Shown: positions 25,628 to 54,450, counted from the stretch's first letter. The stretch: DNA of 64,000 nt from Vitreimonas sp. (GCA_035627515.1 DASPLQ010000012.1:778331-842330), one strand, 5' to 3'. Program-made: numbers and translations. Notes: generated from the sequence alone by a model not told the origin.

Positions 25628-25633
25628 ATTCTG

Positions 25634-25680
25634 ATTGTTGCTTGCGTGTCAAAGGGTTTTTCTGAGATACTGGTGAAATG
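25634..25680 (+). promoter_or_regulatory. conserved promoter cassette copy 2 (leaderless-type, extended -10 TGaGATACT 6 nt before the ATG)
   Basis: TTGCTTGCgTgtcAAAGGgTTTTTCTGAGATACTGgTGaaATG. Confidence 0.45.
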
Positions 25681-27504
25681 CATGAAGCTCCGATAACTGC
25701 TGTTAACTTGCCACTTTCTACGGCCATTAGAACAGATGGTGTTCTGAGTCCTCAACAAGAGGATACTTTGAAGTATCGAAATAGAGCCGAACAAAAAGCA
25801 GAAGATTTGCTAAATAACATTATCGGGGGAAGAGACTTAACAGTAGTAATGGGGTATGTTACTACTGAACCTAAGGCTGTTAATGAAGTTGTTCCTGATT
25901 TTTCAATTCTATTTAATACTGAAGCCACAGGAACTTTAACATCTGCGGTGCCTGCAGTTTTATCTCATGACACGATTGTAACTGAAGGCGAAACCCGCCT
26001 GCACAACGGTTTGTATCATCAACTTTCTACTGAGAATCATAGTTTTCAAGGTTTAAAAATTAATCAAATAGGTGATGAATATGTCACTAAACTTAGTTCA
26101 CTTTTAATTGATAAATATGGGGTGAACTATACAGCGGAAGATGTAATTAGAGCACTTGATAAGCTCTTCACTAAAGTTTCTGGCGATTCAGATTTGGCTG
26201 AGAAGGCTCGAACTCAACTTAAAGCAGTCTTAGAAGCAACTAAAGCTAAACTCAAACATCGATTCGCCACTGTTTCAATTGAGAATAAAACAGCTCCAGT
26301 GGAGAGACTCGAGTTGCTTAAGCCTGGAAATAGGGCTGTCAGAATTGAACTCACGCACTTTTGTTTAACTGAAGGATTTCAAGTTGATAACTCGGAAGCT
26401 CAGCGATCAAAGTTTGTGGCCAAATTTTTAGCTGAATTTGATGGTTACCAACCTGGAGTTTTGCGACACTACTTAGCTATTCTTTACAAAGAGTTATCTG
26501 TTTTGCCCAGTGATATGGGAGTGGTAAAACAAAGTATTGATCTTCTTAACACAGCAATTCTGCGCCAACAGGTCGATAATAAGAACTGGAAGCATCAATC
26601 AGATTCTTCCAAGTTAGGTGTTGTTTTTAGTAAGTATCGATTTTATCGCGATTTCCAGCGTGAGGTAGCTGAGGCCTTAAAAAACAAGCAAAAAGCCACC
26701 GAGGTTGAAAAGCAGAAGGCGCTGCTTGAAAAAACAGCTGTAAGTGCTGAAATAAGAAAACCTGTTCTTTCACGAAAAATGCTTTGGGGTGGGGTCGTTT
26801 TCTTATTGGTTGGGGCCTGTGGTTTAGTTGAGGCATTTAACCCTGGTGCATTGACTCAAGCGCGAGCTAACTTTAATGATAATAATGAAAACTCATCTTC
26901 AACTTCGATGGTCAGTGAGTTGTTTGCAGATTTGTTAGCAGCAGAAAAACATATCGAGCATATTTTGAGTGATGAATATGTTCCAGCCTTAGTGAATGAT
27001 CCATATAAAGAAATGCGTGCCGCTGCGGCTTCGCCGATAGTACCTGAAGCGTCAGTAACTCGTAGTGAAGGGATGCAAGAGTTGCATCAACTGAGTCAAG
27101 ATTTAGCTCTAGCATCTTTGCGCGATCAGGTCACAGGGGGGTCGCCTGAACGCCAACGCTTAGTTGATTACGTACGTTGGACGATCAATATGTCATATAA
27201 TCGGCCTGGAGATTTTGCGCGGCTAGTGTCTATTACGGGGGTAAGTTGGAATCCAGAAAAGTTGGAAACATATTTGCGGATAGCTACTCGGATTGAGAAG
27301 TATCTGCCTGATTTACATCAACAGGTTATAACTGGTCAATCTGACATTTTAGGAGCAGTTCAGGCAAATATGGATGAGTTCCCAGAAGGTTTTGATGCTC
27401 GTGCAGTTGAGCATGACAATACCACTCCAGATGCTTCAATTTCAGGAGAAATTGATACAGAATTACTAGATAAACTGCAAACTCTGACTAAGATTGCTGG
27501 CTAA
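25678..27504 (+). CDS. large hypothetical bitopic membrane protein (608 aa), same architecture as the preceding gene
   Basis: Single central TM (MLWGGVVFLLVGACGLV). No known domain. Shares the upstream cassette with 23735..25627. Confidence 0.5.
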   Translation: MHEAPITAVNLPLSTAIRTDGVLSPQQEDTLKYRNRAEQKAEDLLNNIIGGRDLTVVMGYVTTEPKAVNEVVPDFSILFNTEATGTLTSAVPAVLSHDTIVTEGETRLHNGLYHQLSTENHSFQGLKINQIGDEYVTKLSSLLIDKYGVNYTAEDVIRALDKLFTKVSGDSDLAEKARTQLKAVLEATKAKLKHRFATVSIENKTAPVERLELLKPGNRAVRIELTHFCLTEGFQVDNSEAQRSKFVAKFLAEFDGYQPGVLRHYLAILYKELSVLPSDMGVVKQSIDLLNTAILRQQVDNKNWKHQSDSSKLGVVFSKYRFYRDFQREVAEALKNKQKATEVEKQKALLEKTAVSAEIRKPVLSRKMLWGGVVFLLVGACGLVEAFNPGALTQARANFNDNNENSSSTSMVSELFADLLAAEKHIEHILSDEYVPALVNDPYKEMRAAAASPIVPEASVTRSEGMQELHQLSQDLALASLRDQVTGGSPERQRLVDYVRWTINMSYNRPGDFARLVSITGVSWNPEKLETYLRIATRIEKYLPDLHQQVITGQSDILGAVQANMDEFPEGFDARAVEHDNTTPDASISGEIDTELLDKLQTLTKIAG

Positions 27505-27506
27505 AA

Positions 27507-27535
27507 TTGACAAACCTCCAGCCACCACTTACAAT
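27507..27535 (+). promoter_or_regulatory. consensus sigma70-like promoter of the alaS leader
   Basis: TTGACA -17 nt- TACAAT, immediately after the upstream stop codon. Confidence 0.6.
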
Positions 27536-27541
27536 TCAAGC

Positions 27542-27766
27542 AACAACTTAACAACAGCGATGAATGGAAGAATTTTGAGTTCATTTGAATTCAGAAGGGC
27601 CGCCCAGGAGCTGCCAGCGAAGAGCTGAGCCGGAAGTTTACAAAGTTCACCGTCAACAGAACTAGAGCCCTATGCCGAAATGGTTTAGGGGAACCAAGGT
27701 GGTACCACGAGAAGCCTCGTCCTTGTCCAGAACTAGAGTAGTTCAGGATGAAGACGAGGTTTTTTT
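27542..27766 (+). ncRNA. candidate T-box riboswitch leader controlling alaS
   Basis: About 260-nt leader. T-box-like sequence AACCAAGGUGGUACCACGAG (27690..27711; consensus AAUUAGGGUGGNACCGCG). It contains UGGU, which is complementary to an NCCA 3' end with an A discriminator base, as in tRNA-Ala. It overlaps the 5' arm of a long terminator hairpin (27715..27733 / 27741..27759) that is followed by UUUUUUU (27760..27766). Confidence 0.55.
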
Positions 27767-27803
27767 ATTGGCATAAAGAAAATTACTTAACCCGAAAGGT
27801 CAT

Positions 27804-29684
27804 ATGACACCGAATCAATTACGCGACAAGTATTTACAGTACTTTGAAAAACAAGGTCATGCTATTGTGCCGTCTTCACCCCTGGTGCCTGAAAATGACC
27901 CAACTACCTTATTTACAGGCTCAGGCATGCAGCCGATGGTGCCCTATCTATTAGGTCAGCCTCATCCCAAAGGCACTCGAATTGTAGATTCACAGAAATG
28001 TTTCCGGTCGCAAGACATTGAAGAAGTGGGTGACAATCGCCACACCACATTTTTTGAAATGTTGGGTAATTGGTCGCTGGGTGATTACTTTAAAAAAGAC
28101 CAGTTGCGATGGTTTTTTACTTTTTTGACTGACGAAGTGGGCTTAGATCCGCATCGTATTTTTGTGACGGTTTTCCGTGGCAGTGAAGAATTAGATATTC
28201 CTCGTGATAGCGAATCTGTTGCTGTCTGGAAGGAGTTGTTTGCAGAGAAGGGTATCGCAGCTACCGATATCGATTTTGCTGATCGCGATGGCATGCAAGA
28301 CGGCCGTATTTTTTACTACGAAGAAAAGAAAAACTGGTGGTCTCGAGCAGGTGTGCCCGCGAATATGCCGGCTGGTGAACCAGGGGGTCCCGATAGTGAA
28401 GTTTTTTATGACTTTGGCGCTGAGTTACATCTTCACGAAAACTCAACTTTCAAAACTGAACCCTGTCATGTGAATTGTGATTGCGGCCGCTTTTTGGAAA
28501 TTGGGAACTCAGTATTCATGCAGTACCAGAAACAGCCCGATGGTAGTTTCAACGAACTGCCACAGAAGAATGTTGATTTTGGCGGCGGTTTAGAACGCAT
28601 TCTAGCTGCTCATAATCAAGATGGAGATGTTTTTAACACTGAGCTATTTAGCCCGATTATGACCCAGCTCTCACAAGTCAGTGGCCAAGAATATCGCACT
28701 GCGGATGACAAGGTCAAACGTTCTTTTCGAGTGATTGCTGACCATCTGAAAGCAGCGACGATGTTAGCAGCCGATGGCGTATACCCAGCCAACAAAGAAC
28801 AAGGTTATTTTGCTCGGCGCTTGGTACGGCGCGCAGTGCGTTATGGCAGAATGATTGGCATTACGCAACCATTTGTGAGCCAAGTTGTGCAGGTCGTAGG
28901 TGAAATATATGAGCAGGCTTATCCCGAAGTTTTTGGTCAGTTAGAAAAAATTAAAACCGGCCTCAGTGATGAAGAACAAAAATTTAATAAAACCTTGGAA
29001 AAAGGTTTGCGAGAGATCGAAAAAATTGGTGAGCTGACGGGTGAGTCTGCCTTCAAGCTCTATGAAACCTATGGTTTTCCCTTGGAGTTGACAGAGGAAA
29101 TCGCTCAGGAGCGCGGCCAAATCGTGGATCGCGAAGCTTTTCGTTTGGCGTTCAATGAACACAAAGATAAATCACGGACCGCTTCGGCTGGCAAGTTCAA
29201 AGGTGGTCTGCAAGATCACTCAGAAGTGACGATTAAGTACCATACAGCTACACATTTGCTTCATGCTGCGTTGCGGCAGGTATTGGGTACCCATGTCCAA
29301 CAAAAAGGCTCTAATATTACGGCCGAGCGGTTACGATTTGATTTTTCTCACCAGCAGGCTATGACGGAACAAGAAAAGCAGCAGGTGGAACAACTCGTAA
29401 ATAACTGGATCAAGCAAGATTTGTCAGTCACGCGCCAAACGATGCTCAAACAAGAGGCACTCAATTCAGGCGCCATTGCTTTCTTTTTAGAAAAGTATCC
29501 CGATGAAGTTTCGGTCTATACAGTTGGCCAGGATCCTACTGGTAAACAAGGTGAGGGCTGGATTTCTAAAGAGTTTTGTGGAGGGCCACACGTAGAGCAC
29601 ACTGGGCAAATTGGACCGATCAAGCTTACAAAAGAACAAGCTACCTCAGCTGGCGTACGGCGGGTGTATATGGAGTTGGCATAA
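27804..29684 (+). CDS. alaS: alanyl-tRNA synthetase, short form lacking the C-terminal C-Ala domain (626 aa)
   Basis: Class II catalytic core (FTGSGMQP, GDNRHTTFFEMLGNWSLGDYFK). Editing-domain zinc motifs HTATHLLHAALRQ and CGGPHV are present. The protein ends ~250 aa short of canonical bacterial AlaRS. Confidence 0.85.
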   Translation: MTPNQLRDKYLQYFEKQGHAIVPSSPLVPENDPTTLFTGSGMQPMVPYLLGQPHPKGTRIVDSQKCFRSQDIEEVGDNRHTTFFEMLGNWSLGDYFKKDQLRWFFTFLTDEVGLDPHRIFVTVFRGSEELDIPRDSESVAVWKELFAEKGIAATDIDFADRDGMQDGRIFYYEEKKNWWSRAGVPANMPAGEPGGPDSEVFYDFGAELHLHENSTFKTEPCHVNCDCGRFLEIGNSVFMQYQKQPDGSFNELPQKNVDFGGGLERILAAHNQDGDVFNTELFSPIMTQLSQVSGQEYRTADDKVKRSFRVIADHLKAATMLAADGVYPANKEQGYFARRLVRRAVRYGRMIGITQPFVSQVVQVVGEIYEQAYPEVFGQLEKIKTGLSDEEQKFNKTLEKGLREIEKIGELTGESAFKLYETYGFPLELTEEIAQERGQIVDREAFRLAFNEHKDKSRTASAGKFKGGLQDHSEVTIKYHTATHLLHAALRQVLGTHVQQKGSNITAERLRFDFSHQQAMTEQEKQQVEQLVNNWIKQDLSVTRQTMLKQEALNSGAIAFFLEKYPDEVSVYTVGQDPTGKQGEGWISKEFCGGPHVEHTGQIGPIKLTKEQATSAGVRRVYMELA

Positions 29685-29723
29685 CTTTTGCTTGCTTTGT
29701 ACTAAAAAATTCTGCATACTAAC
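29685..29723 (+). promoter_or_regulatory. conserved promoter cassette copy 3 (TGcATACT extended -10), about 40 nt upstream of the 29765 gene
   Basis: ACTTTTgCTTGCTTTgTActAAAAAATTCTGcATACTAA begins right after the alaS stop, exactly as copy 1 begins after its upstream stop. Confidence 0.4.
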
Positions 29724-29764
29724 TTCAACACAGTTACTGTTGTGATGACTGTGGTGAAAGTTGT

Positions 29765-31603
29765 ATGTTTGCTCAAGGTGGTATCCCCGAAGAACATAAA
29801 GAAAAAAGTGAGTTACTCAAACTACCTGCTAGTGGGCATCGGTTGGATAACTTACCACAGCTGTTAAAAGAGCAAAAGTCTGCTGCGGAGTTGGCACAAA
29901 AGACTCATGAGGTAGTTGATGGATTAATTAATCCATCTTTAACTGCGCTTGCAACAGAAGCCTCTAAGAATGTTGAGGGTAATCCTGCTAACGCTTCGAA
30001 AAATCCGGTGGCAACAGAGATAAACGCGCTCTTACAGAAAGATTCTCCTTTACAGCTGCTAAAGGAGACAGCCGATCTCCAATTAGAACAAACGAACTCT
30101 ACATTAACCACCTTAGCTAATGATGCGATGACAGCACTGGGTTTTTTCCAGAATCGTGGTTTTTATGACAAATTTTCATCTCAGTATGATGTGGGAGGGA
30201 TCTTAGATGATCTTAAGACACCCGGAAAGACTCGAGTAGATTGGCTCAAAGACAATGCCGAGAAAATCGCCCATGCTTTAAAAGATGCGTGCGCTAAACA
30301 TTTTGAAATAGCTGACGGTGTTTTAGATCTCTATGCTCTTATTTTCCCGGGAAATCAAAAAATTATAAGATTACAGAGAATGCATCCTAACGGGAATGCT
30401 CCTGGTGAATTATGGTCAAGCGAAGACCTGCAAAGATTTGATAGAGACATGAAGGCAACTCAGCAAGATTTGAAGCCCAAGCTAGAAGAAATGGTAAGAA
30501 CCTGGCAGAAATTGGGTCACAATCCTTCACAAATTATGAACTTTTTAAATGGAGACTACAATCAAATGAGATTTGATGTGGAGTCAGTAAAAGGGCAACT
30601 GACAACTTTAATGCGAGACGTTGAGGCTCAACGACAGGCAGCTGAGGCGACTACGGCTGTTGGTCTACTGAGGTTCCTTGAGCAAGGGAATGATGCCGTA
30701 ATCAGTGTGGCAGCAGAGTCAGGTCTACAAAAAATACTCAAGCCTGACCAATATCAGAACTTAATTGATATTTTAAGTAACAACGCTCAAGCTAATGGTG
30801 GTGATAAAGTTTCACTCCTGCAGCTAGCCGCCTTTGAAGCTCATGGGGTTTCAACACAACAACTTATTAAAGATATTTTTCGAAGAAATCCGGCTCTAAT
30901 TATCAAACTTTCAGAGCAACTACAAGATTGGAGTCAAGTTGATGGTAGAAATCTCAGATTTGCCCAGCAGGTGAGTGAAAAATACTTGACTGGACTTAAA
31001 GCCAGAGCTGATAAAACTAAATCGCCAAGTGAAGCGTTGAGCTCTCTCAAGCAATATCTGACAGAAATGAGTCAGCCGGCGATCAAAGTCAAGGAAACAA
31101 GGGAGCAGGTGGAAAAGTCTATTGAGCGCTTTGATAACGATAAATTGCAAAACAGAGATGCCGCTGATACCTATGACGATTTGGCTAAGCTGGCATGTAA
31201 GTTATTGGGTATGGGTGAGCAAGAGACTTTACTTAATATGAACCCGCTTCTCGAAGCTTTTACGAGTAGAAATTTGCGCAGAGCGCTTTTAGCCCACTTG
31301 CCAGAAGGGTCCTCGGCCAGAGCTGAATATGCAAATTTCACCATCCTGTTGCCAATTGATGGGAACAGAAAGATGGAAATCAGTATTACAAGTGCTCTGA
31401 ATATCGCTTATATGAGCTTGAAAGCCCACCATCCAGATGGAGTGGGTACAGTGGGAGTGATGCTGGGTTATCAATTTAATGATAAAGGCGACAGGCCAAA
31501 AGTAACGCGAACCGCCTCAAGCCCAGTCTTTGGTTTGCAGGATGTGACTAAGAATCTTTTAATGATTAATGACAATGTCAAAAAAGTAGAAATTCCTAAG
31601 TAA
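29765..31603 (+). CDS. large hypothetical soluble protein (612 aa)
   Basis: No TM and no known motifs. Helical, Gln/Leu-rich N-terminal region. Confidence 0.5.
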   Translation: MFAQGGIPEEHKEKSELLKLPASGHRLDNLPQLLKEQKSAAELAQKTHEVVDGLINPSLTALATEASKNVEGNPANASKNPVATEINALLQKDSPLQLLKETADLQLEQTNSTLTTLANDAMTALGFFQNRGFYDKFSSQYDVGGILDDLKTPGKTRVDWLKDNAEKIAHALKDACAKHFEIADGVLDLYALIFPGNQKIIRLQRMHPNGNAPGELWSSEDLQRFDRDMKATQQDLKPKLEEMVRTWQKLGHNPSQIMNFLNGDYNQMRFDVESVKGQLTTLMRDVEAQRQAAEATTAVGLLRFLEQGNDAVISVAAESGLQKILKPDQYQNLIDILSNNAQANGGDKVSLLQLAAFEAHGVSTQQLIKDIFRRNPALIIKLSEQLQDWSQVDGRNLRFAQQVSEKYLTGLKARADKTKSPSEALSSLKQYLTEMSQPAIKVKETREQVEKSIERFDNDKLQNRDAADTYDDLAKLACKLLGMGEQETLLNMNPLLEAFTSRNLRRALLAHLPEGSSARAEYANFTILLPIDGNRKMEISITSALNIAYMSLKAHHPDGVGTVGVMLGYQFNDKGDRPKVTRTASSPVFGLQDVTKNLLMINDNVKKVEIPK

Positions 31604-31690
31604 GATCGTTGTTTTCACTCTCTCCCTTCCCATTACACTCGATCTTTGCTTTAATTAAGCTGAAGCCTTTTTAGCAAGGCTGTCTTTGCT

Positions 31691-33997
31691 ATGGAGTTAC
31701 CAAACCTGTTTTCGTCACCGGCTGGGCCTGATAAATTGTTGTTGGCAGTTGTGCTGACTGGGAGCACTGTTCAAGCAGCGTTGTGGAAGGTGAAAGATGG
31801 TGAGATCGTAGTGGTCCATACCTCAAGTGTTCTGGAATACACCGATGATGAGAACTGCTTAGTGGTGACTGATGAGAGCTTGCAAGAGTTGGGCAAAGAA
31901 TCTGAAGATGTTGAGGAGGTGGTGTTTGGCTTTGCACCGAGTTGGGTTGATGCTCAAGGTATTGTTGATGTTCATAAACCATTGTTGAAGAAATTAACTA
32001 AACAGCTCAGCCTCAAAGCGGTGGGTTTTGTGGTAATTGATGAAGCTTTATTTCAAGAACTAAAAGAGCATGAGCCTTTTTTAAGTGCATTTTTGATTGT
32101 GGCGGCTCAGCAAGAACTGCGAGTGTCGGTCATTCATCAAGGTAACTTAGGTTTTACGATTGAAGTGGGCAAATCTGATGATGCCGCTGCCGATGTGATT
32201 GAGGCTTTAGCGCGCGCCACAGCCGAGGGCAAGAAGCTACCTCCAGTTTTACCGGCCAAGATGTTATTAGCTTCAGCTGAGCTGGACGAAAGTGAAGTTA
32301 CCGATATCCAACAAAGTTTAATTGCACACGATTGGGTGGCATCGCATGGGTTGTTACATCCTCCCACCGTCGATGTCTTATCCACGACAAGCGTGGTAGA
32401 AGCGATCACCCGTCAAGGTGGGCGAGCAGTTGCTGAAGTTCAAGGGCTGATTAAACGAGCAGCCAGTAGTACAACGCCCACTCCACAAGTGCCTCAGCTG
32501 GAGAGTGACGTAGTACCTGTAGCAGGTGAAGTTGTTGCCGACGAATTAGGTTTCGAGCCCATGGTGCTCGAAGCCCAACCCAATGAGCCGCAGCCTGCCA
32601 CGCCTAGTTTGCCAGAAGCCGAAGAATATGCCGTAGAGCAAGCAAATGTGGTACTCCCTAATCATGCTCAATCTAGCTTTGGTGTCCCCATTGGTTTGCA
32701 CCACTTGGAAAAGTCTAATTCTGGAACTTCTCCAGCGTTCCGCACTCATGAGGATGAAGAGTATGCATTTGAAACTGAACAACCTGCCAGTCACAGTCAA
32801 GCAAGTTCACCGCGTCAGCGACTTGGAACTTTTATTCACGCTCATCGCTTATTTATTACCTTGGGATTTATTGGGGGAGTTTTAGCATTACTTCTGATTG
32901 CCTTTGGTGCCATTGCGATGAGTACGCAAGCTCAGGTGGCAATCACACTCAATAGTAAGCCACTCTCGCAAGAAGTTCCCGTGACTTTAGATGCCAAGGC
33001 AACTGCTGTTGATGCCGCTAACCGAGTCCTACCTGCTAAAGCCGTAACTCAGGAGCTGAGTGAGACTAAGTCCCTGCCCACTACCGGGATTAAATTAGTG
33101 GGGGACAAGGCTAAAGGCACAGTCACTTTGATCAACAAAACTGAGTCATCTAAATCATTTGCTGCTGGGACAGTGCTGACTGCTGGCAAGCTCAAGTTTG
33201 TTTTAGATAAAGAAGTGACCGTGGCATCTGCCAGTGTCAGTAAGCGTGGTAGTGAAGGTGAAAACAAAACCTATGGTAAAGCTGATGGGGCAGCGACGGC
33301 TCAAGCTATCGGTACTGAGAGCAATGTTGGTCAAAATGTAGAGTTTACGGTCGGTGACTTTTCAGGGAATACGTACTCAGCGATCGCCAAGAGTGCTTTC
33401 AGCGGCGGAGCTAGCCGTGAAGCTCGTGCAGTCAGTGAAAAGGATCGTGAAAAAATTCTAGCCGATCTGAAGACTGAGCTGATTAAAAAAGCCGAAGCTG
33501 CTTTTCAAGAACAATCAGGAAATGGCAGTTATACTGTCCCCACCGGCAAAGTCTCGGTCAAAACCTCTGAGTACAGCGGTAAAGCCGGTGAGGAAGCAGA
33601 TACCCTGACGCTGAAAGCGACGATGGTAGTGGAGGGTCTAAGTTATCAAGTAGGAGATTTACAACCGCTGGCTAAAGAGATCTTAGCTACCCAACTGCCG
33701 AGTGAGTATGAGCTAAGTGATGAAGCCCCTCAGGTGTTATCTACCCCTTCGCAAACCGCCAGCAATTCCGGCAAAGTGGTGTTACAGATGAACATGAGCA
33801 CTGTTGCCTATCCTAAGATCGATGTTGCAGCTTGGCTGAATCAGCTGCAAGCTAAACAACTAACTGAAGCCGAGAGTGAGCTCAAAACTAAAGCAGAAGT
33901 AAAAAGTGTCGAGATTACTCTTCAGCCCAAGATTGCTGAATGGGTTTGGCCACGGTTACCGAGTAAAGCTGAAAGAATTAAGGTACAAACACAATGA
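31691..33997 (+). CDS. large bitopic membrane protein (768 aa), translationally coupled to the sortase gene
   Basis: About 380-aa cytoplasmic N-domain, one TM (LFITLGFIGGVLALLLIAFGAIAM), and a ~360-aa extracellular C-domain rich in Thr/Ser/Lys/Gly. ATGA overlap with the downstream sortase gene. Confidence 0.5.
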   Translation: MELPNLFSSPAGPDKLLLAVVLTGSTVQAALWKVKDGEIVVVHTSSVLEYTDDENCLVVTDESLQELGKESEDVEEVVFGFAPSWVDAQGIVDVHKPLLKKLTKQLSLKAVGFVVIDEALFQELKEHEPFLSAFLIVAAQQELRVSVIHQGNLGFTIEVGKSDDAAADVIEALARATAEGKKLPPVLPAKMLLASAELDESEVTDIQQSLIAHDWVASHGLLHPPTVDVLSTTSVVEAITRQGGRAVAEVQGLIKRAASSTTPTPQVPQLESDVVPVAGEVVADELGFEPMVLEAQPNEPQPATPSLPEAEEYAVEQANVVLPNHAQSSFGVPIGLHHLEKSNSGTSPAFRTHEDEEYAFETEQPASHSQASSPRQRLGTFIHAHRLFITLGFIGGVLALLLIAFGAIAMSTQAQVAITLNSKPLSQEVPVTLDAKATAVDAANRVLPAKAVTQELSETKSLPTTGIKLVGDKAKGTVTLINKTESSKSFAAGTVLTAGKLKFVLDKEVTVASASVSKRGSEGENKTYGKADGAATAQAIGTESNVGQNVEFTVGDFSGNTYSAIAKSAFSGGASREARAVSEKDREKILADLKTELIKKAEAAFQEQSGNGSYTVPTGKVSVKTSEYSGKAGEEADTLTLKATMVVEGLSYQVGDLQPLAKEILATQLPSEYELSDEAPQVLSTPSQTASNSGKVVLQMNMSTVAYPKIDVAAWLNQLQAKQLTEAESELKTKAEVKSVEITLQPKIAEWVWPRLPSKAERIKVQTQ

Positions 33998-43881: not shown

Positions 43882-43918
43882 AAAGCCCTGGTCCGCCAAC
43901 TGGCGGATGGGGCTTTTT
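43882..43918 (+). terminator. intrinsic terminator after rpoC
   Basis: GCCCtgGTCCGCC-aact-GGCGGAtgGGGC hairpin followed by TTTTT. Confidence 0.7.
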
Positions 43919-43923
43919 GGTAG

Positions 43924-44130
43924 TTAGCGATACTTTTTACCTTGGGATTTGGGTCGCTCAGGATCATACATTGTGGGAGGCACCCCTCTTAATATCGCTA
44001 CTATTCTTCCTCGTCTTCTAATGAAAATGGGTTGTTGCTGAAAGTAGGCAATATGGAGCAACTCGAAGAAGTCATTCCGAGCTTGTGTAGCTGTTACAAA
44101 GATACGGCTGCGGTTGTAAATAGATTTCAT
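43924..44130 (-). CDS. Phd/YefM-family antitoxin-like protein (68 aa), with no cognate toxin gene adjacent
   Basis: N-terminal ~50 aa (VTATQARNDFFELL...QPIFIRRRGRIVAILRGV) fits the Phd/YefM pattern. TTGCAT direct repeats (operator-like) lie just upstream on its strand. Its 3' end overlaps the rpoC terminator. Confidence 0.5.
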   Translation of the reverse strand: MKSIYNRSRIFVTATQARNDFFELLHIAYFQQQPIFIRRRGRIVAILRGVPPTMYDPERPKSQGKKYR

Positions 44131-44378: not shown

Positions 44379-44612
44379 ATGTGTAAAGTAGAGCGGGTGA
44401 GACAAGAGTTACTACAGAGGTTAGATGCTGGCCAAAGTCCTGCCAGACTTCATGAGTGGTTAGCTGAGGAATTTAATGCGGCAGCTTTTGAAGATGATGA
44501 TCCCATTGATTGGGAGGCTTACGATGCTTTATTCATGATGTGCCCGTTGCCTCCTACACGCAGTCAATTAGAATTGGAAACTGTCTTGGACGAGACACCT
44601 TTTACGAGGTGA
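44379..44612 (+). CDS. hypothetical acidic protein (77 aa)
   Basis: ORF with a TATAAT-like box ~30 nt upstream. No motif. Confidence 0.3.
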   Translation: MCKVERVRQELLQRLDAGQSPARLHEWLAEEFNAAAFEDDDPIDWEAYDALFMMCPLPPTRSQLELETVLDETPFTR

Positions 44613-44714: not shown

Positions 44715-45125
44715 ATGCCAACCATTAACCAACTGATTCGAAAAGGTGGACGGACAAGTAAAGTGAAACGCATCAAAGCTACTGCTTTGCGCCGTAGTTT
44801 TAACACGATTACTAACAGTCCTGTCAAAACCACTAACCCTCAAAAACGAGGTGTGTGTACCGTGGTTAAAACCATGACTCCTAAGAAACCTAACTCAGCC
44901 TTACGTAAAGTAGCTCGTGTCCGCTTGTCCAACAAGATGGAAGTCACGGCTTACATCATGGGTGAAGGTCATAACTTAGCTGAACACAGTATCGTCTTAG
45001 TTCGTGGTGGTCGGGTCAAAGACTTACCTGGTGTGAAGTATCACATCGTCCGCGGTAAATTTGACTGTGCTGGTGTCAATGGTCGTAAGACCAGTCGTAG
45101 TAAATACGGCGTCAAGAAAAGTTAA
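44715..45125 (+). CDS. rpsL: 30S ribosomal protein S12
   Basis: [13 protein letters not shown]...conserved [10 protein letters not shown] and the [12 protein letters not shown] loop. Confidence 0.95.
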
Positions 45126-45198
45126 TTATTAATACTCATACCTTCTCACGATTGGTGAAGAAGGAGTAACCACGCTCAGCGTGGTGAAGAAAGAGCCT

Positions 45199-45675
45199 AT
45201 GCGCGCTAAAAAAGCCAAAGTCAGACAAGCTGTCCCAGACTTCAAATATAACTCCGTTAAGATCGCCCGGTTGATCAACTATGCCATGTATGATGGCAAA
45301 AAAACTGTGGCCCAAAAACAGGTCTATGATGCCTTAGAGCAGATTAGCCAACAATTAAATCGCCCTGCGCCAGAAATTTTAGAAGACGTATTACGCAACG
45401 TGACTCCACAAATGGAAGTCCGTTCTCGCCGCGTGGGTGGTGCTGCTTACCAGGTGCCGATGCCTGTCAAAGGTCGCCGTGGTTCATCACTCTCCTTGCG
45501 CTGGTTAATCCAAGAAGCTCGCAAACGCCCTAACAAGCAATACCACTCCTTTGCTGAGAAATTAGTCGCTGAAATGACTGACGCTCTCAACAATGCTGGT
45601 GGTGCGATCCAACGCAAAGAAACCTCACATCGCATGGCCGAAGCCAACAAGGCTTTCAGTCACTTCCGGTGGTAA
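45199..45675 (+). CDS. rpsG: 30S ribosomal protein S7
   Basis: S7 signature region NYAMYDGKKTVAQKQVYDAL...RRVGGAAYQVP. The start is most likely the ATG at 45199. The track ORF begins at a GTG at 45181. Confidence 0.9.
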   Translation: MRAKKAKVRQAVPDFKYNSVKIARLINYAMYDGKKTVAQKQVYDALEQISQQLNRPAPEILEDVLRNVTPQMEVRSRRVGGAAYQVPMPVKGRRGSSLSLRWLIQEARKRPNKQYHSFAEKLVAEMTDALNNAGGAIQRKETSHRMAEANKAFSHFRW

Positions 45676-45715: not shown

Positions 45716-46528
45716 ATGCCTCCAGTTGAACGAGGTATTCGACTAAACGAAGAAGACTTAGCATTACTGGAACAGCTTTTAGCAGCATCTCTCCCTACGG
45801 CGGTTCTATTTGATTTACCGGCAACTGAAGCGACAAAGGAAGTTCTCACGCAATCAGACGAAGTTGAATCACCTCCAGTAACAGCCGAAGAATATCTGAC
45901 TGAATATCAGCTTCAACAAAATCCCACTAAAGATGAGTTACAAATGGCTTTAGAAAATAGTGGTTTGACAGTAGGGGAAGCTCAGCAGTTATTACATAAA
46001 ACTCGCTGGATTATTCCCTGGGATAACCCCTTGCACCTTGCTGAGGTTTTTCACATCATGATTAATTTCACAGATGGAGCTGAACTGAGTTTAAGAACAG
46101 AGAAGGTTGATCATGCTCTAAGCCTTCGGAAACTTAGAAAAACAGACTTAATTTTATTTAGGCAAGCATTATTACTAATAGGCAATCAAAAGAAAACTTT
46201 ATTATCACGAGATATTCGTAATAACCCTAATCTGCTCGAAGGCGTAACCTTGCGTCGTCTTTTAATGGCACATGGCTATGCCCCAAGGCTAGCTACCCAA
46301 GCTGTAAATGGTTTAGTTCGCCATAACTTCATTAATCCTTTTGAACAAGCGGCTAATGAACAGTCAACTGAGGTTATTGAGATGTTGCGTACAGCTGTTA
46401 ATTTAGAAGACTTTGGAGAAAAAGTTTTCAATCGCAGATCATTCTCAATACCAGGCGTAATTCATCATTTAGGTAACATAGGCTTTGAGGCCTTACATGA
46501 TGTGTTTACTAAATTAGAAAATAAATAA
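45716..46528 (+). CDS. hypothetical protein H1 (270 aa), inserted between rpsG and fusA
   Basis: Starts 40 nt after rpsG with no intervening promoter. No known motif. Confidence 0.45.
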   Translation: MPPVERGIRLNEEDLALLEQLLAASLPTAVLFDLPATEATKEVLTQSDEVESPPVTAEEYLTEYQLQQNPTKDELQMALENSGLTVGEAQQLLHKTRWIIPWDNPLHLAEVFHIMINFTDGAELSLRTEKVDHALSLRKLRKTDLILFRQALLLIGNQKKTLLSRDIRNNPNLLEGVTLRRLLMAHGYAPRLATQAVNGLVRHNFINPFEQAANEQSTEVIEMLRTAVNLEDFGEKVFNRRSFSIPGVIHHLGNIGFEALHDVFTKLENK

Positions 46529-46654
46529 CTCACCCCTTTTCCTGTATTGATTTCGGCGTATAATCACTTTTTGTTACACATCCATGGCGGATGAAAAACG
46601 TAGTAAAAGGGCTGGCTAGAAGGTACTAAATTCCATTTTTAGCCTGGATTTTTT

Positions 46655-47119
46655 ATGGCAGGATTTACAGTAGAACACTCACGAGTAGGGAATGATGCCG
46701 GCAGTTTAACAGCATGGTTATTAAATATGGTTCGAGGGCAAGAAGAAGGTGGTCAATCTGATTCTAATCGTGTTGAGGCTGGAGCCATTGTTTGGCAGTG
46801 GAATCAAAATGGTGCTACTTCCCACATTGACCAAGACCATCTCACTCAGAGTGTTAATATGCTGAAGCACCATGATGACGAGAGATTCCAGGCAGCTTTA
46901 GAGAGTTTCACTGTTATTGCTCCTAGTACCCAAGTAGCAAGTCAAGTAACCTACAGGGAATGCAAACTAATGCTAACTCTTGATGATCAGCGCCAAGTTC
47001 CTCAACAACAAGTTGAAACAGTTTTACAGATGTTAGTTCAAAACAATATTCCTTTTAGTGTAAAGATCGAGGACGCAGTTGATCCTAGAAAAGACGCATT
47101 AGTGATCCGAGTTTATTAA
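46655..47119 (+). CDS. hypothetical protein H2 (154 aa)
   Basis: ORF between H1 and H3. No motif. Confidence 0.4.
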   Translation: MAGFTVEHSRVGNDAGSLTAWLLNMVRGQEEGGQSDSNRVEAGAIVWQWNQNGATSHIDQDHLTQSVNMLKHHDDERFQAALESFTVIAPSTQVASQVTYRECKLMLTLDDQRQVPQQQVETVLQMLVQNNIPFSVKIEDAVDPRKDALVIRVY

Positions 47120-47137
47120 CCTCAAGCAGAGTGCTTT

Positions 47138-47800
47138 ATGACTCCAGAAGATAATCATAAGCATTGGTATGAGTTAACGGTTTATGATTTGTCTGAAAAG
47201 GAGCGCTTTGCACTCCAAAATAGTATTGCTCGAGCCTTATTGCAGTTTGATCTCAAGGTAGGTGTCGCAGAGGGAGAGCTGAAGGCACTGTACTTTGCTA
47301 ACAGACTTAGTATCGAGTTCCCACATTGGGCTTATCAATTAGTGCAAACTGTTCTCGAAAAGCATTTCCCAAATATCACCTATGAAGCGATTAAGATTGC
47401 TGAGCGAGACCCTAGTCACGAGCAAGGGGCTTTAGCGTTAGATATGGTCATGGCACTTGTTGCACGACAGAAATTACTGTCAGTATATGAAGCTCGGCTT
47501 TTAAAAGAGATGATAATCAAAAAAGAATGGGCCACTCATGGGTACATTTTTCCCGAAATTGTAAATGCAATTTTAGCTTTACCAGCTGAGGTAAGTACTA
47601 TCACTGGGTATCAGGCTAAATTACCACGAATCTTAAAAAGGCCAAGTAAAATTAATTACTTTAGAGGTAGTGAAGGTATTACTCCCAAAGAGATGGGAAT
47701 ACTTAAAACTGCCATCGAAAACCTAGTCAATCAACAACAAATTTACTTTTTAAGTTCTAAGATAGATGACGAGTGGATCGAAGACGAGCGGAAAGACTGA
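47138..47800 (+). CDS. hypothetical protein H3 (220 aa)
   Basis: ORF immediately upstream of fusA. No motif. Confidence 0.45.
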   Translation: MTPEDNHKHWYELTVYDLSEKERFALQNSIARALLQFDLKVGVAEGELKALYFANRLSIEFPHWAYQLVQTVLEKHFPNITYEAIKIAERDPSHEQGALALDMVMALVARQKLLSVYEARLLKEMIIKKEWATHGYIFPEIVNAILALPAEVSTITGYQAKLPRILKRPSKINYFRGSEGITPKEMGILKTAIENLVNQQQIYFLSSKIDDEWIEDERKD

Positions 47801-47914
47801 TTTCCACACCTTCCCTCAGAGCGGTTTTCTCGGTATAATCCTCTGTTACTTTGCCCAAAAGTTTTGTGCATATTTAAATACGTAATACACTTCGTCATTT
47901 GACAGAGGACATAT

Positions 47915-50062
47915 ATGGCAGGTCAACAAACCGTCAAAACTACCAACCGTAACCTTCCGCTCGATCGGATTCGGAACATCGGTATTATTGCTCACATCGA
48001 CGCTGGTAAGACCACTACTACTGAGCGCATTCTTTATTACACTGGTAAGTCCTACAAAATTGGTGAAGTTCATGAAGGTGCTACCCAAATGGACTGGATG
48101 GACCAAGAGCGTGAGCGTGGTATTACAATCGTGTCAGCTGCCACAACAACTTTCTGGACTCCTGTTTTCGACACCCACTTAACTAAAGATTCTTACCGCT
48201 TCAATATCATCGATACTCCAGGACACGTGGACTTCACTGCCGAAGTGGAGCGCTCACTACGCGTGCTCGATGGTGGTATCACTGTGCTCGATGCCGAAGA
48301 GGGTGTACAGTCACAATCAGAAACTGTTTGGCGCCAAGCTGACAAATACAATGTGCCTCGGATCTGTTTCGTCAACAAAATGGACAAGCTCGGTGCTGAT
48401 TTCATGCGCACGATTCAAGATATCCGTGACAAATTCGGCGTCAAACCAGCCATCATGGTCTTGCCAATTGGTGTCGAAGATACTTTCAAAGGCGTGATCC
48501 AGTTACTCGAGCGCAAAGCTTGGGTGTGGGAAAAAGGTCACTTAGGTGCTGAGTACAATGAAGTCGAGATTCCAGCCGAGATGAAGGATGATGTCGAGAA
48601 GTATCGTTCACAATTAATTGAACAAATTTCCGAAACTGATGATGCTTTGTTAGAAAAATATTTAGCTGGTGAAGAACCCTCAGTGGCTGAATTGAAGGCC
48701 GCTTTACGTGCTGCCACTATTGGTTACAAATTAGTGCCTATTTATTGTGGTTCATCGTTGCGCAACACTGGTGTACAAATTCTCTTAGATGCAGTCGTTG
48801 AGTACTTACCATCTCCTCAAGACATCGTAGAAATCAAAGGCACTCACCCCAAAACTGGTGAGGAAGAAGTTCGGCAACTTGTTCCTGAAGAGCCTTTCTG
48901 TGGTTTGGCCTTCAAGATCCAAACCGATCCTCACGTGGGTCGTTTGACCTATGTCCGGATTTATTCTGGCAAATTGGCTTCAGGTTCCTATACGTTTAAC
49001 TCCACTCGCAAAGCTCGCGAGCGCGTGGGTCGCTTGCTGTTAATGCATGCCAACCAACGTGAAGAAATCACTGAAGCTTTTGCTGGTGAGATCGTCGCTA
49101 TTGTGGGTTTGAAGGACACCAAAACTGGTGACTCACTCTGTGACGAAGGCAAGCCGATTGTGCTCGAAGGTATCAGCTTTGCTGATCCGGTGATTTCCTT
49201 AGCAATTGAACCTAAGACTAAGTCTGACCAAGAAAAGATGGGTGTAGCTTTAGGTAAATTAGCTGAAGAAGACCCCACCTTCCAAATTAAGAGTGATCAA
49301 GAGACCGGTCAAACCATTATTGCCGGTATGGGTGAGTTGCACTTAGAAATTTTGGTTGACCGCATGAAACGCGAGTTCAAAGTAGATGCCAATGTGGGTG
49401 CGCCTCAGGTAGCTTACAAAGAAACTATTAAAGTGGCTGCTGATGGTGAAGGTAAATACATCAAACAAACTGGTGGTCGCGGTCAATATGGTCACGTCTT
49501 ACTCAAAGTCGAGCCTAAAGATCGTGGAACTGGTTATGAATTTGTTAACGCCATCACTGGTGGTACCGTGCCTAAAGAGTACATCGAGCCGACTAATAAA
49601 GGTATCCAAGAGTCATTGGAAAGAGGTTTCATTGCTGGTTTCCCAATGAGTGATATCAAAGTCACTTTGTATGACGGGTCATTCCACGAAGTGGACTCTA
49701 GTGAACTGTCATTTAAAATGGCAGGCTCACTGGGTATGCGTGACGCCATTTCTCGCGCTCAAGCCGTGATCTTGGAACCAATCATGAAAGTGGAAGTCAC
49801 TACCCCTGATGAATTTATGGGTGATGTGATTGGTGACCTCGGTGCTCGCCGGGCTCAAATCCAAGGTACTGCTAACCGTAACAATGTCACGATCATTACC
49901 GCTTTGGTGCCCTTAGCTCAAATGCAAGGTTATGTGACTATCTTACGGTCCATGACCCAAGGCCGTGCTTCCTCAGTGATGTTACCAAGTCACTACGAAG
50001 AAGTGCCTTCTAGTATTCAAGCTAAATTAATCGAAGAGAGAAAAGGGATTAACGTTCGGTAA
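47915..50062 (+). CDS. fusA: elongation factor G
   Basis: GTPase G1-G4 motifs ([21 protein letters not shown]) and EF-G domains II-V. Confidence 0.95.
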
Positions 50063-50085
50063 ACTCTCATAGTTACACAGAGAAA

Positions 50086-50113
50086 GGGGTGCCCAGCCGG
50101 GCGCCCCTTTTTT
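50086..50113 (+). terminator. intrinsic terminator after fusA
   Basis: GGGGTGCCC-agcc-GGGCGCCCC followed by TTTTTT. Confidence 0.8.
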
Positions 50114-50184
50114 ATTACTTCTTTTTAACACCTTTTGGCATTTTTATTGACATGCTATGCTCCCTTAAGTAACAGAAAGGCCAT

Positions 50185-50628
50185 ATGGTTATTGAGCAGT
50201 TAAGCAAGCCAGATTTTAGCAATTTCATTAACTATACTATTCAATATTGGGAACTAATTGATAAATTTAATAAAAAAAATGAGAGCTTTGAGGAAGAGGA
50301 TGTGGAGACATTTCTAGGTGTATGTGCGCTATTAATTGAGTTTGCCCGTTTAGATAGAGAAGTGCAGCCGGCGGTAATCAGAATGTTTACCGGTGTGATC
50401 GATGAGACTGAAAGGCCCTCATCATCTAATGCATTAACTGAAGAGCAAAAACGGCAACAGGAAATCTTTCAAGCCTGGTTTGAGACAGAAATTTCATTGG
50501 CATTGTTGGTAGAGAATGCACACACTTTTAAAGAAGCCTTGCGCAAACTTAAAGTTAGTGCCGATCGTCCGATTATGAAAATCTTGCAAAACAGAAAGAG
50601 AACCACTCATGCAAAGCTGGCGAGTTAG
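50185..50628 (+). CDS. hypothetical protein H4 (147 aa), member of a family of small proteins interleaved in the str/S10 region
   Basis: Shares the FINYTIQ and EEDVETFLGVCALLIEF segments with H6 and H7 (FINEIRT / DDELETFFPIIAMIF). Confidence 0.45.
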   Translation: MVIEQLSKPDFSNFINYTIQYWELIDKFNKKNESFEEEDVETFLGVCALLIEFARLDREVQPAVIRMFTGVIDETERPSSSNALTEEQKRQQEIFQAWFETEISLALLVENAHTFKEALRKLKVSADRPIMKILQNRKRTTHAKLAS

Positions 50629-51322
50629 GATGGAGAATGGAAGTAATTATCTGGAGAGAATGGCTCCCGATCAGCTTTCATTGCAGCCTCTTGTTTCATC
50701 ACTGCTGGAGTTAAAAGCTCCTAAGAGGCAGCGGCTGAGGTTGCGTCGTCAGCGCCAGTACTTTGTTTCATATCTTGATAAATTATCTTCACATGAGCTG
50801 CCATCGGCTGAGTTACAAGCAGAGTTAGAGACATTTATTCAATCTACCCATTCACTTTACTTGGAAACACTGACCTTAATTGATAGTAGTTTTGGATCAG
50901 CTACGGAAGCTGAAATAAAAATCAAAAGTGAGCAGCGGAAAAATGGGGAGATTATTACTGTAAGATCAGCTGCAGAGACAAAAAGATTAATTGATCTTGA
51001 GTATTTGTTTTTTTGTTACTCGCGGTGGGCGGCGGTGTTGGTGCGTGAGCGATTTGTGGAGGCACTCCAGAATATCGAAGATGAGCTTACAGTGACCGGG
51101 GCTGTAATTTGTAGTGAGAGCGAGCACGTGGAGGGAGTAGGAGCACACCAGAGTTTTATGGAGATATATATTGAAGTTCCTCTCACTACCCTTAACCAAA
51201 CTTTGGCTATTCTTGAGAAAATAGGTATTACGTACGATCTTTCAACTCTGCAATCCACTGATGGGATAGTAGCCTTAGAAATTTTCAATGAACCCGCTTT
51301 TTCAAGCAGTACTAAGGGATAG
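50609..51322 (+). CDS. hypothetical protein H5 (237 aa)
   Basis: Overlaps H4 by 20 nt. Contains an AELETFIQ segment resembling the family motif. Confidence 0.45.
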   Translation: MQSWRVRMENGSNYLERMAPDQLSLQPLVSSLLELKAPKRQRLRLRRQRQYFVSYLDKLSSHELPSAELQAELETFIQSTHSLYLETLTLIDSSFGSATEAEIKIKSEQRKNGEIITVRSAAETKRLIDLEYLFFCYSRWAAVLVRERFVEALQNIEDELTVTGAVICSESEHVEGVGAHQSFMEIYIEVPLTTLNQTLAILEKIGITYDLSTLQSTDGIVALEIFNEPAFSSSTKG

Positions 51323-51395
51323 AGAGTAAGTTCACTATAAAAAGTTTTTTTATGATGAGTAAACTCATCGATAATGTCCGCACTAAAACCTCCCT

Positions 51396-51424
51396 TTGCC
51401 AACTTGCCCCAGAGGCTTTATAAT
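51396..51424 (+). promoter_or_regulatory. sigma70-like promoter for tuf
   Basis: TTGCCA -17 nt- TATAAT, about 105 nt upstream of the tuf ATG. Confidence 0.6.
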
Positions 51425-51528
51425 CAACTCTCGATTGTTTTCCAATCGCTCGTATTTTAGTATTAAGTACTTCTAGTTTAGTCATTAATAATTAGTAACT
51501 AGAAATTACCTTTACCGGGAGGACTCAT

Positions 51529-52725
<1,197 letters not shown>

Positions 52726-52767
52726 TTTTAGTTGATTGCGCTTAGCGCAATTGCATTGAAAACAAAA

Positions 52768-52796
52768 GCCCTCTCCGCTTATGGAGGGGGCTTTTT
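52768..52796 (+). terminator. intrinsic terminator after tuf
   Basis: GCCCTCTCC-gcttat-GGAGGGGGC followed by TTTTT. A second small hairpin (TTGCGCTtAGCGCAA) lies just upstream. Confidence 0.8.
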
Positions 52797-52844
52797 GGTA
52801 GAAAAATTTTTATCAGTGGTAAAATAATCAACACTTTATTTCCT

Positions 52845-53369
52845 ATGTCATTTTTACTCAAGTATCGTGAGCTTGGTATTTTTCCCCACCCATGGAAATG
52901 GAGAGACTATGAAGTGGGTGATGATGTGCGCTTATTAGCCTTCATTAATGAAATCAGAACGCCATTTACTTCCAAAAGGCGAATCAAAAAAGTTATTAAG
53001 CAATTGCAGTCCGTCGATCAAATTCATCAATTAAGTAGCCAAGATGATGAGTTAGAGACTTTTTTCCCTATCATTGCCATGATCTTTAGAAGGGAGTTAT
53101 CAGACAGTTTACAAAAAGTTATTATCCAGCCCCCCCAGCAGGTGTTTCGCCTCAAACCTGACCGTGAACTTGACCTGACTCAATTAGTCCGTATTAGCGC
53201 TAGCAGCACCGCCCCCGATAGCAGAGAACTGCAAGGCTATAAGTTTCATCCTTATTATGTGGAAACTGAAGCTGGAGCGATCAGTCTGGCCGCTAAAGTA
53301 CCTCAGCTAATTTTTGAGGATATTAGCTATATTATTTATCAAAAATTGTTGGCTGAAGCCAAGAAATAA
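52845..53369 (+). CDS. hypothetical protein H6 (174 aa), tandem paralog of H7
   Basis: Shared segments with H7: KYRE, ELETFFPIIAMIF vs ELELFFPLMAQLF, and HPYYVETEAGAISL vs FRYYAETELGYLTL. Confidence 0.5.
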   Translation: MSFLLKYRELGIFPHPWKWRDYEVGDDVRLLAFINEIRTPFTSKRRIKKVIKQLQSVDQIHQLSSQDDELETFFPIIAMIFRRELSDSLQKVIIQPPQQVFRLKPDRELDLTQLVRISASSTAPDSRELQGYKFHPYYVETEAGAISLAAKVPQLIFEDISYIIYQKLLAEAKK

Positions 53370-53417
53370 AATACTCACTGATTACACACATCAAATGGAG
53401 TGCTAGAATAACTGACT

Positions 53418-53933
53418 ATGAGCATGAGAGTTGGGGTAAAGTACCGAGAGTTTATAGAATTCAGTGACATCGAAAGATGGTCAGTGTTTAAATCAAAACC
53501 AGAAGCCTACGCATTTATCTCAACTATAACTCAACCCTTAGATACAGAGGAGTACCTACTCAGTATTATTGATTCTTTGGAAGATTATCGCCAACTGCAA
53601 GAAGTTCTCCCAGAAAGTAGAGAGCTGGAATTATTTTTCCCCCTCATGGCTCAGCTTTTTATTTTAAACAACCAAGAGCATGGCATACGGGTTCCACAAC
53701 GGTCTGCCAATGAGCGATACCGACGGGGGGCAAATTTAATAGTCCATCAACCATCAAATCGCTCTGTGCAAATTTACCCCTCACCTAAAGCACTGCACCC
53801 GTATGATGCTCCACACATATTCCGCTATTATGCTGAGACGGAATTAGGATATTTAACACTGCAAACGCGTGCGACTGATGCCGAGCGAAATAGTCTCAGG
53901 GAGATAATTTTTCAAGTGTTGAAGGGAACTTAA
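53418..53933 (+). CDS. hypothetical protein H7 (171 aa), tandem paralog of H6
   Basis: See H6. Confidence 0.5.
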   Translation: MSMRVGVKYREFIEFSDIERWSVFKSKPEAYAFISTITQPLDTEEYLLSIIDSLEDYRQLQEVLPESRELELFFPLMAQLFILNNQEHGIRVPQRSANERYRRGANLIVHQPSNRSVQIYPSPKALHPYDAPHIFRYYAETELGYLTLQTRATDAERNSLREIIFQVLKGT

Positions 53934-54020: not shown

Positions 54021-54050
54021 CTTGCTACCAGGTGAAATTCTCTGTATAAT
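54021..54050 (+). promoter_or_regulatory. sigma70-like promoter for the S10 operon
   Basis: TTGCTA -17 nt- TATAAT, about 75 nt upstream of rpsJ. Coordinates +/-1. Confidence 0.6.
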
Positions 54051-54123: not shown

Positions 54124-54450
54124 ATGGCAGCGACCACATCTACAGCTAGCTACAAAATCCGAGTCCGGCTTAAGGCCTATGATCATCGGGTGATTGACGA
54201 AGCTTCTAAAAAGATTTTAGAAACTGCTTTATCAACCGGTGCTAAAGTAATTGGTCCGGTGCCTTTGCCAACTAACCACAAATGGTTTACTGTTTTGGCA
54301 TCACCACATACTGATAAAGATGCTCAAGAGCATTACACAATCCGAACGCACAAACGCTTAATTGAAATTGTCAATCCAACTGGTAAAACTATTGATTCTC
54401 TAATGCACTTAGAGTTACCAGCCGGTGTTGATATTCAAATTAAGATGTAG
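54124..54450 (+). CDS. rpsJ: 30S ribosomal protein S10
   Basis: [15 protein letters not shown]...conserved S10 fold sequence. Confidence 0.9.

Follow-up and report, generated by a model that had tools for sequence, protein, structure and literature searches.

The stretch of DNA analyzed here, hereafter the window, spans 64,000 nt of a genome deposited as Vitreimonas sp. (GCA_035627515.1 DASPLQ010000012.1:778331-842330), and our analysis concerns the small open reading frames (ORFs) located between its genes rpoC, rpsL, rpsG, fusA, tuf and rpsJ. The conserved order rpoC-rpsL-rpsG-fusA-tuf-rpsJ is kept in the window, which also carries rpoB and a compact S10/spc cluster; all these genes lie on the + strand. 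The initial annotation of this locus reported seven small ORFs in the gaps separating rpsG, fusA, tuf and rpsJ; all seven are present on the + strand at the coordinates that it gave. Three of them occupy the 2,243 nt between rpsG and fusA: H1 (45716-46528, 270 aa) starts 40 nt 3' of rpsG and is followed by H2 (46655-47119, 154 aa) and, 18 nt further on, by H3 (47138-47800, 220 aa). The fusA-tuf gap (1,470 nt) contains H4 (50185-50628, 147 aa) and H5 (50609-51322, 237 aa), which shares 20 nt with the end of H4 and is shortened to 230 aa when the NCBI start (50630) is used. Finally, H6 (52845-53369, 174 aa) and H7 (53418-53933, 171 aa) stand in tandem in the tuf-rpsJ gap (1,402 nt). We added to this set H0 (44379-44612, + strand, 77 aa, acidic), which lies outside the coordinates of the initial annotation, in a rpoC-rpsL gap of 860 nt that also houses a 68-aa minus-strand ORF. 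The anchor genes are rpsL (44715-45125), rpsG (45181-45675), fusA (47915-50062, encoding EF-G), tuf (51529-52725, encoding EF-Tu) and rpsJ (54124-54450), all on the + strand; rpsJ opens the tightly packed S10 cluster, within which no further ORFs are interleaved.

We evaluated whether these ORFs are likely to encode proteins. The longest ORF found in 500 dinucleotide shuffles of each gap was used as a null for ORF length, and H1 to H7 each exceeded the 99th percentile of these shuffled values (130-137 aa). Using a frame-specific codon model trained on the known genes of the window, we obtained scores of 0.18-0.36 for the H ORFs (0.32 for H0), compared with 0.25-0.73 for the known genes and at most 0.01 for antisense shadow ORFs. 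In addition, H6 and H7 are both full-length and collinear despite having diverged to 26-30% identity. Judging by ORF length, codon-frame score and this intact pair of paralogs, H1 to H7 are predicted to be real protein-coding genes. All eight products are predicted to be soluble, with no transmembrane-like segment, and seven of the eight are acidic. A contrary interpretation is that the ORFs are non-functional or barely functional, either decaying remnants of inserts or young proto-genes that stay open by chance or weak selection in expanded spacers. The GC-content at third codon positions of the H ORFs (0.28-0.40) and their coding scores are indeed lower than those of neighboring genes, the Shine-Dalgarno sequences read before H2, H3, H6 and H7 are weak or absent, and the lack of homologs and the low confidence of the structural models described below (pLDDT 32-36) point in the same direction. 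However, seven + strand ORFs of 147-270 aa lie far past the expectation from shuffles, they have, in contrast to the shadow ORFs, clearly positive coding scores, H6 and H7 have remained collinear over their full length at ~28% identity, and analogous genes in the same gaps of related genomes show nonsynonymous divergence well below synonymous divergence (pN 0.32 and pS 0.71). We consider this interpretation to be quite improbable.

Searches of Pfam, PHROGs, PADLOC and PDB sequences with H0 to H7 returned no credible match (the best PADLOC match, with E = 0.0013, was not considered credible), which upholds the earlier statement that these ORFs have no recognizable domain; H0 was likewise without Pfam, PHROG or PADLOC match. 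Among ribosomal and translation-factor families, no Pfam or PDB sequence match was found for H1 to H7. When proteins were clustered at 90% identity, the H proteins, including H0, were singletons, and the cluster of H5 contained only the NCBI 230-aa call of the same gene. A word-index database search with H6 returned H6 alone, and an exhaustive search of 1.84 billion representative proteins with an H6+H7 profile returned H6 and H7 only. H1 is the sole H protein with a homolog elsewhere: a 299-aa ORF located in the same rpsG-fusA gap of a JGI metagenome genome (L084:8921-9820; phmmer 2.4e-6; BLASTP 2e-7 across the C-terminal 125 aa). A database search with this pair yielded no third member. The other H proteins had no match in 81 related loci, and H2 presented only sub-threshold matches, to ORFs in the same gap of loci L081 and L087 (E ~0.09 in a set of 45 proteins). 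Scans of viral contigs with H1, H3 and H5 found no relatives. AlphaFold2 models were unusable, with a predicted local distance difference test (pLDDT) of 32 for H6 (with H7) and of 36.5 for H1 (with its L084 homolog). By these searches H0 to H7 are taxonomically restricted (orphan) genes, and their description as lineage-specific is upheld.

It had been proposed that at least four of the ORFs are paralogous and that they form a repeatedly duplicated family. H6 and H7 are tandem paralogs as proposed (BLASTP E = 4.4e-10 over the full length; phmmer 2e-9; Smith-Waterman z = 18 relative to shuffles; 26-30% identity). All-versus-all comparisons of the H proteins by BLASTP, phmmer and Smith-Waterman identified no other related pair. 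A search of 574 ORFs of the window with the H6+H7 profile (hmmsearch) placed H4 at rank 5 with E = 1.2 and did not list H5, BLASTP of H4 and H5 against H6 and H7 gave E-values of at least 8, and iterative searches with jackhmmer from each H protein recruited nothing except H6 and H7 from one another and the L084 homolog from H1. The initial annotation had suggested pairwise and profile-profile comparisons for this question, and these indicate that H4 and H5 are unrelated to H6 and H7, with hhalign probabilities of 0.2-0.3% for H4 (0.2%), H5 and H0 against H6/H7. The claim of at least four paralogs is thus reduced to a single pair, and the idea of repeated duplication is not borne out, H1 to H5 matching neither one another nor H6/H7.

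The proposed kinship of H4 and H5 with H6 and H7 had been based on shared ELETF-type segments. These strings exist: the regular expression [DE][LV]E[TL][FV] matches H0, H4, H5, H6 and H7 (five matches in the H proteins), with no match in 16,057 aa of the other genes of the window, in 35,520 aa of ORFs from the same gaps of relatives or in ~70,000 aa of + strand ORFs from loci of the clade. This expression was, however, picked post hoc from the strings in the initial annotation, and such sharing does not exceed chance when the maximum over all 5-mers of H6 is considered (P = 0.23-0.35); a rarity-weighted 5-mer test gave P = 0.016, though for a different 5-mer. The presence of an ELETF-like string in five of the eight proteins constitutes no evidence of homology. 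A family of lineage-specific translation or ribosome factors, comprising H4 to H7 or all of H1 to H7, would account for the H6/H7 pair, for this string in H0 and H4 to H7 and its absence from the comparison sets, and for a DNA string of 14/15 nt that H5 and H6 have in common. Its profile and profile-profile tests were negative, the sharing of the motif did not rise above chance over all 5-mers, jackhmmer did not extend it beyond H6/H7 and the H1 pair, and no such family appeared in the same gaps of relatives or among the 1.84e9 representative proteins. We regard this hypothesis as largely refuted at the sequence level and give it very little credence. Our comparisons indicate instead that H0 to H7 are not one family and that H6/H7 is the sole tandem duplication among them.

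The source record, a contig of 1.41 Mb, is labeled as Vitreimonas sp., an alphaproteobacterium. The window has a GC-content of 44%, its named EF-G matches are Patescibacteria (83% identity) and Woesebacteria (78%), the closest matches being metagenome proteins, and its sortase-ruvX-mltG-rpoB-rpoC neighborhood is shared with the metagenome-assembled genomes (MAGs) related by EF-G. Because of this GC-content, these EF-G relatives and this synteny, the Vitreimonas label appears to be wrong, and the host appears to belong to the Patescibacteria (candidate phyla radiation, CPR), in relation to Microgenomates/Woesebacteria.

We then compared the same gaps, which we call slots, across relatives. The loci comprised nine found through EF-G matches and 71 metagenome loci found through a clade-specific EF-G fragment; a scan of genome contigs with EF-Tu included unrelated phyla among the matches listed, with loci L001 and L067 as the informative ones. 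We defined a close set of 11 distinct loci whose EF-G is at least 76% identical to that of the window (76-90%). In this set, gaps of more than 300 nt were observed between rpsG and fusA in 9 loci, between fusA and tuf in 6 and between tuf and rpsJ in 10. The rpsL-rpsG gap is tight in close relatives except L084, and the rpsJ-rplC gap does not exceed 141 nt in any of them. All ORFs of at least 70 aa in the slots of all compared loci (199 ORFs) were clustered with phmmer at 1e-4, and 125 of these 199 were singletons. In the close clade, only four pairs of slot ORFs were related (H1 and its L084 homolog, H6/H7, the rpsG-fusA ORFs of L085 and L086, and a tandem pair of 113-aa ORFs in L083), to which can be added an ORF of ~450 aa common to the tuf-rpsJ slots of L089 and L093. 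Searches with jackhmmer from the relatives' slot ORFs led to no growth of families, and an alignment of the ORFs following rpsG in five genomes contained no conserved columns. The slot check suggested by the initial annotation therefore has a mixed outcome: the slots of relatives do hold ORFs, but nearly all of these are unrelated to those of the window, and only H1 has a homolog.

The content of the slots varies among relatives. Some slots contain known genes, such as glmS between fusA and tuf in L088, a 23S_rRNA_IVP (PF05635) protein preceding rpsJ in L086 and a DUF559/MTES_1575 nuclease-like protein following rpsG in L090, and the rpsG-fusA slot is empty in L088 and L093. At the same borders in more distant CPR, we found a HhH-GPD glycosylase, a sorbosone dehydrogenase, a DsbD-thioredoxin protein and a GDP-mannose dehydratase, as well as a subtilase, GpsA, an SPFH protein, a histidine phosphatase and a mini-protein limited to the GreA N-terminal domain. 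The locus closest to the window by EF-G (L083, 90%) presents three consecutive 113-aa ORFs before rpsJ (L083:8774-9811), two of which are the tandem paralogs mentioned above (E = 1e-30); this duplication is independent of that of H6/H7 and took place in the same slot with an unrelated protein.

The pair L085/L086, whose S7 proteins are 86% identical, offers a direct view of these changes. The two loci have a rpsG-fusA ORF in common at 50% identity, with dN of 0.41 relative to 0.04-0.12 for EF-Tu, S7 and L3 of the same pair. Since its pN is 0.32 and its pS 0.71, this ORF is under purifying selection while evolving 3-10 times faster than its neighbors; dS was saturated in every usable pair, and selection is stated here as pN < pS only. 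The same two loci differ in their other slots: fusA-tuf contains two ORFs in one and none in the other, and tuf-rpsJ contains a 186-aa orphan in L085 and the IVP protein in L086. These differences are direct evidence of turnover, and both turnover and divergence occur in the slots.

The main rival explanation gives more weight to divergence. The slots, and chiefly the position following rpsG, might hold old resident genes that have diverged past detection and whose function is tied to their translation neighbors, for instance as lineage-specific ribosome- or EF-associated accessory proteins. An ORF follows rpsG in eight of the nine annotated relatives (a DUF559 nuclease in L090), starting from a 7-nt overlap to 156 nt downstream and within 15 nt in L081, L083, L084 and L089; two further loci, for which only gap sizes were obtained, have rpsG-fusA gaps of 365 nt and 100 nt. 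This explanation also gains from the H1 homolog in the same slot of L084, from the fact that the sub-threshold best matches of several rpsG-fusA ORFs are other rpsG-fusA ORFs, from an excess of pairs with z > 3 in this slot, and from the speed of slot ORFs, 3-10 times that of ribosomal proteins, at which orthologs would be invisible at the distance of the window. Against it, same-slot pairs overall showed no enrichment of weak similarity (Mann-Whitney P = 0.37). Moreover, the slots contain from 0 to 3 ORFs, which vary in size (71-299 aa) and are not always on the same strand, the gene following rpsG is missing in L088 and L093 and is a DUF559 nuclease in L090, and an essential partner of the ribosome would not normally evolve so fast or be lost. 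We consider this explanation to be rather unlikely.

We further searched for signals of transcription, with promoters and terminators called as consensus matches only. Strong terminator-like hairpins are found 3' of rpoC, fusA and tuf, which agrees with the earlier claim that fusA and tuf each carry their own terminator: the hairpin after fusA (50080-50113, + strand) has a 15-bp stem followed by a T run, and that after tuf lies at 52769-52788 (+ strand). Within the window, the + strand contains just 12 perfect TATAAT sequences, and six of these (36465, 44344, 46559, 47834, 51419 and 54045; often TATAATC) are located 34-110 nt 5' of rpoB, H0, H2, fusA, tuf and rpsJ. We observed TGGTATAAT 35 nt upstream of H0, and the elements before H2 and fusA stand respectively 96 nt and 81 nt upstream. 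The promoter-like sites before tuf (51396-51424, + strand, TTGCCA-17-TATAAT, 11/12 matches) and before rpsJ (54022-54050, + strand, TTGCTA-17-TATAAT) also have good -35 boxes. In contrast with these borders, we predicted neither terminator nor promoter in the 40-nt gap between rpsG and H1. The statement that H1 is co-transcribed with rpsG thus stands as to the short gap and the missing promoter; co-transcription itself is suggested by these signals, and H1 is probably co-transcribed with rpsL-rpsG.

These signals suggest how the H genes might be expressed. H1 would be carried on the rpsL-rpsG transcript and H2-H3 may be transcribed from their own -10 element. H4-H5 and H6-H7 stand behind terminators and would therefore depend on weak promoters or on read-through. 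The rpoC and tuf terminators end in tails (43905-43923 and 52783-52801) that have a string of 18/19 nt in common, GG(A/G)(T/G)GGGGCTTTTTGGTAG. Our search for repeats and DNA motifs that could represent signatures of insertion sites revealed none, and no flanking repeats, integrase or transposase were found.

This last result bears on the possibility that the H genes are cargo of mobile or conflict systems (defense, anti-defense, immunity or toxin-antitoxin) whose targets are conserved loci with high expression. In favor of such cargo are the small size and acidity of the proteins, their rapid turnover and the tandem duplication, as well as the DUF559/Vsr-like nuclease and the 23S-rRNA-IVP protein that occupy the same slots in relatives. 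The 68-aa ORF in the rpoC-rpsL gap (43924-44130, minus strand), directly 3' of the rpoC terminator, presents a weak similarity to Phd/YefM antitoxins (E = 0.004, under the Pfam cutoff), and a partner toxin gene would not fit beside it. The H proteins themselves had no PADLOC, PHROG or Pfam match and, for H1, H3 and H5, no relatives on viral contigs; besides the missing repeats, integrase and transposase, Rfam and tRNA scans of the window detected no tRNA genes and no Rfam elements. This explanation seems to us very doubtful.

Taken together, our results favor, with a probability of roughly 55%, the interpretation that H0 to H7 are orphan accessory genes that rapidly diverge and turn over at the permissive borders between units of a fragmented str cluster. 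They would be fast-evolving, soluble and mostly acidic accessory proteins located at the borders of independently transcribed rpoBC-str-S10 units. The clade keeps the order of rpsL-rpsG, fusA, tuf and the S10 operon, and since fusA, tuf and rpsJ have their own promoter-like sites and fusA and tuf their own terminators, the spacers between them would tolerate insertions and could gain, lose and duplicate genes without harm to the essential genes. Rapid divergence would have shaped their present occupants together with gene gain, gene loss and the single tandem duplication of H6/H7. We infer from the signals and comparisons above that these transcription units exist, that H0 to H7 are dispensable and that they have no role in translation. 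The suggestion that they are translation- or ribosome-associated factors is not supported: the occupants of the slots are nearly all unrelated, with some known genes and some empty slots, and while a dedicated factor should be conserved both in its sequence and in its position, only H1 has a distant positional homolog.

Several observations weigh against this interpretation. The nearest relatives of the window share 65-73% identity in S7 (88-94% in rpsL and 90-94% in EF-Tu), and because orthologs evolving this fast would be invisible at such a distance, the absence of matches is no proof of non-orthology; undetected orthologs at S7 identities of no more than 73% could reflect divergence past recognition instead. 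The pairs with z > 3 are slightly in excess in the rpsG-fusA slot (7.3% vs 2.4%), and the ORF found within ~160 nt of rpsG in eight of nine relatives could be a conserved positional gene. The case for H1 to H7 as coding genes is drawn from their sequence, the orphan status of H2 to H5 comes from weaker tests (clusters, family libraries and related loci), and the ELETF-like string recurs in five of the eight H proteins. These points leave some room for a bolder version, in which the fusA/tuf borders form a conserved nursery of hyper-fast genes sheltered by the transcription of the most highly expressed operons and at least the gene following rpsG (H1 and its counterparts) encodes a lineage-specific ribosome- or EF-associated protein that has diverged past recognition. 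We find this version quite unlikely, but should the gene following rpsG prove to be ribosome-associated, the list of peculiarities known for CPR ribosomes would grow.

The interpretation that orphan accessory genes turn over at permissive borders has parallels in other bacteria. Small sets of genes are known to invade the inter-operon borders of the rpoBC-str-S10 cluster in Gammaproteobacteria and Bacilli (PMC8046335); known insertions include tusDCB between rpoBC and str and bfd-bfr between str and S10, and insertions explain 77 of 115 events (PMC6735719). The window resembles these cases in that a few genes enter the spacers of translation and transcription operons while the gene order is kept and the units have their own signals. 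It differs from them in that insertions are also found inside the canonical str operon (rpsG-fusA and fusA-tuf), the cargo consists of orphan ORFs rather than known genes, and the content differs within a single CPR clade. Candidatus Patescibacteria have been reported to contain 54,343 lineage-specific clusters of unknown function, of which 42,710 are specific at the species level (Vanni et al. 2022, PMC9132574). The H proteins are similarly restricted at the species level and have no family assignment; the published unknowns, however, are a statistical category and not a family, and clustering around fusA and tuf is not described there. The same study presents GU_19737823, a gene of unknown function located between rpsF-rpsR and rplI in Pseudomonadales (PMC9132574), which is embedded like the H genes among ribosomal-protein genes but, unlike H1 to H7, keeps its sequence and position throughout an order and shows a fitness phenotype. 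Within the clade of the window, the 23S_rRNA_IVP protein of L086 (tuf-rpsJ) and the DUF559/MTES_1575 protein of L090 (rpsG-fusA) occupy the same positions as H genes without sequence similarity to any H protein.

These comparisons correct the attractive idea of a translation-factor family. They describe one CPR clade in which the normally rigid rpsG-fusA-tuf-rpsJ order is kept and orphan genes come and go rapidly in the spacers, which makes it a natural system for the study of gene gain, loss and possibly gene birth beside essential, highly expressed genes. They also recall that the absence of homologs is the norm in CPR genomes and not the sign of a special function.

Additional features were observed in the window and in other genomes. 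Four large ORFs devoid of Pfam domains (630, 608, 612 and 768 aa), showing no paralogy to one another, surround a short alaS (626 aa) at positions 23735-33997 of the window, and sortase, ruvX and mltG stand between these large ORFs and rpoB. In a low-GC MAG (L001, EF-G 69%) that has no rpsL-rpsG 5' of fusA, the fusA-tuf gap reaches 4.7 kb and includes an internally duplicated segment (L001:5494-7577; ORF pairs with E = 1e-30 to 1e-37), whose copies flank a 401-aa minus-strand ORF with a candidate P-loop (GPRQAGKT, as seen in the sequence). Finally, the GreA-related mini-protein mentioned above is a protein of 73-91 aa limited to the N-terminal coiled coil of GreA/GreB, with a conserved GDLSENAAY tip. 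Absent from the clade of the window, it is encoded immediately 5' of fusA in 11 distant CPR loci (L099:8954-9229, L103, L104, L116, L119, L125, L133, L134, L140, L144 and L153).

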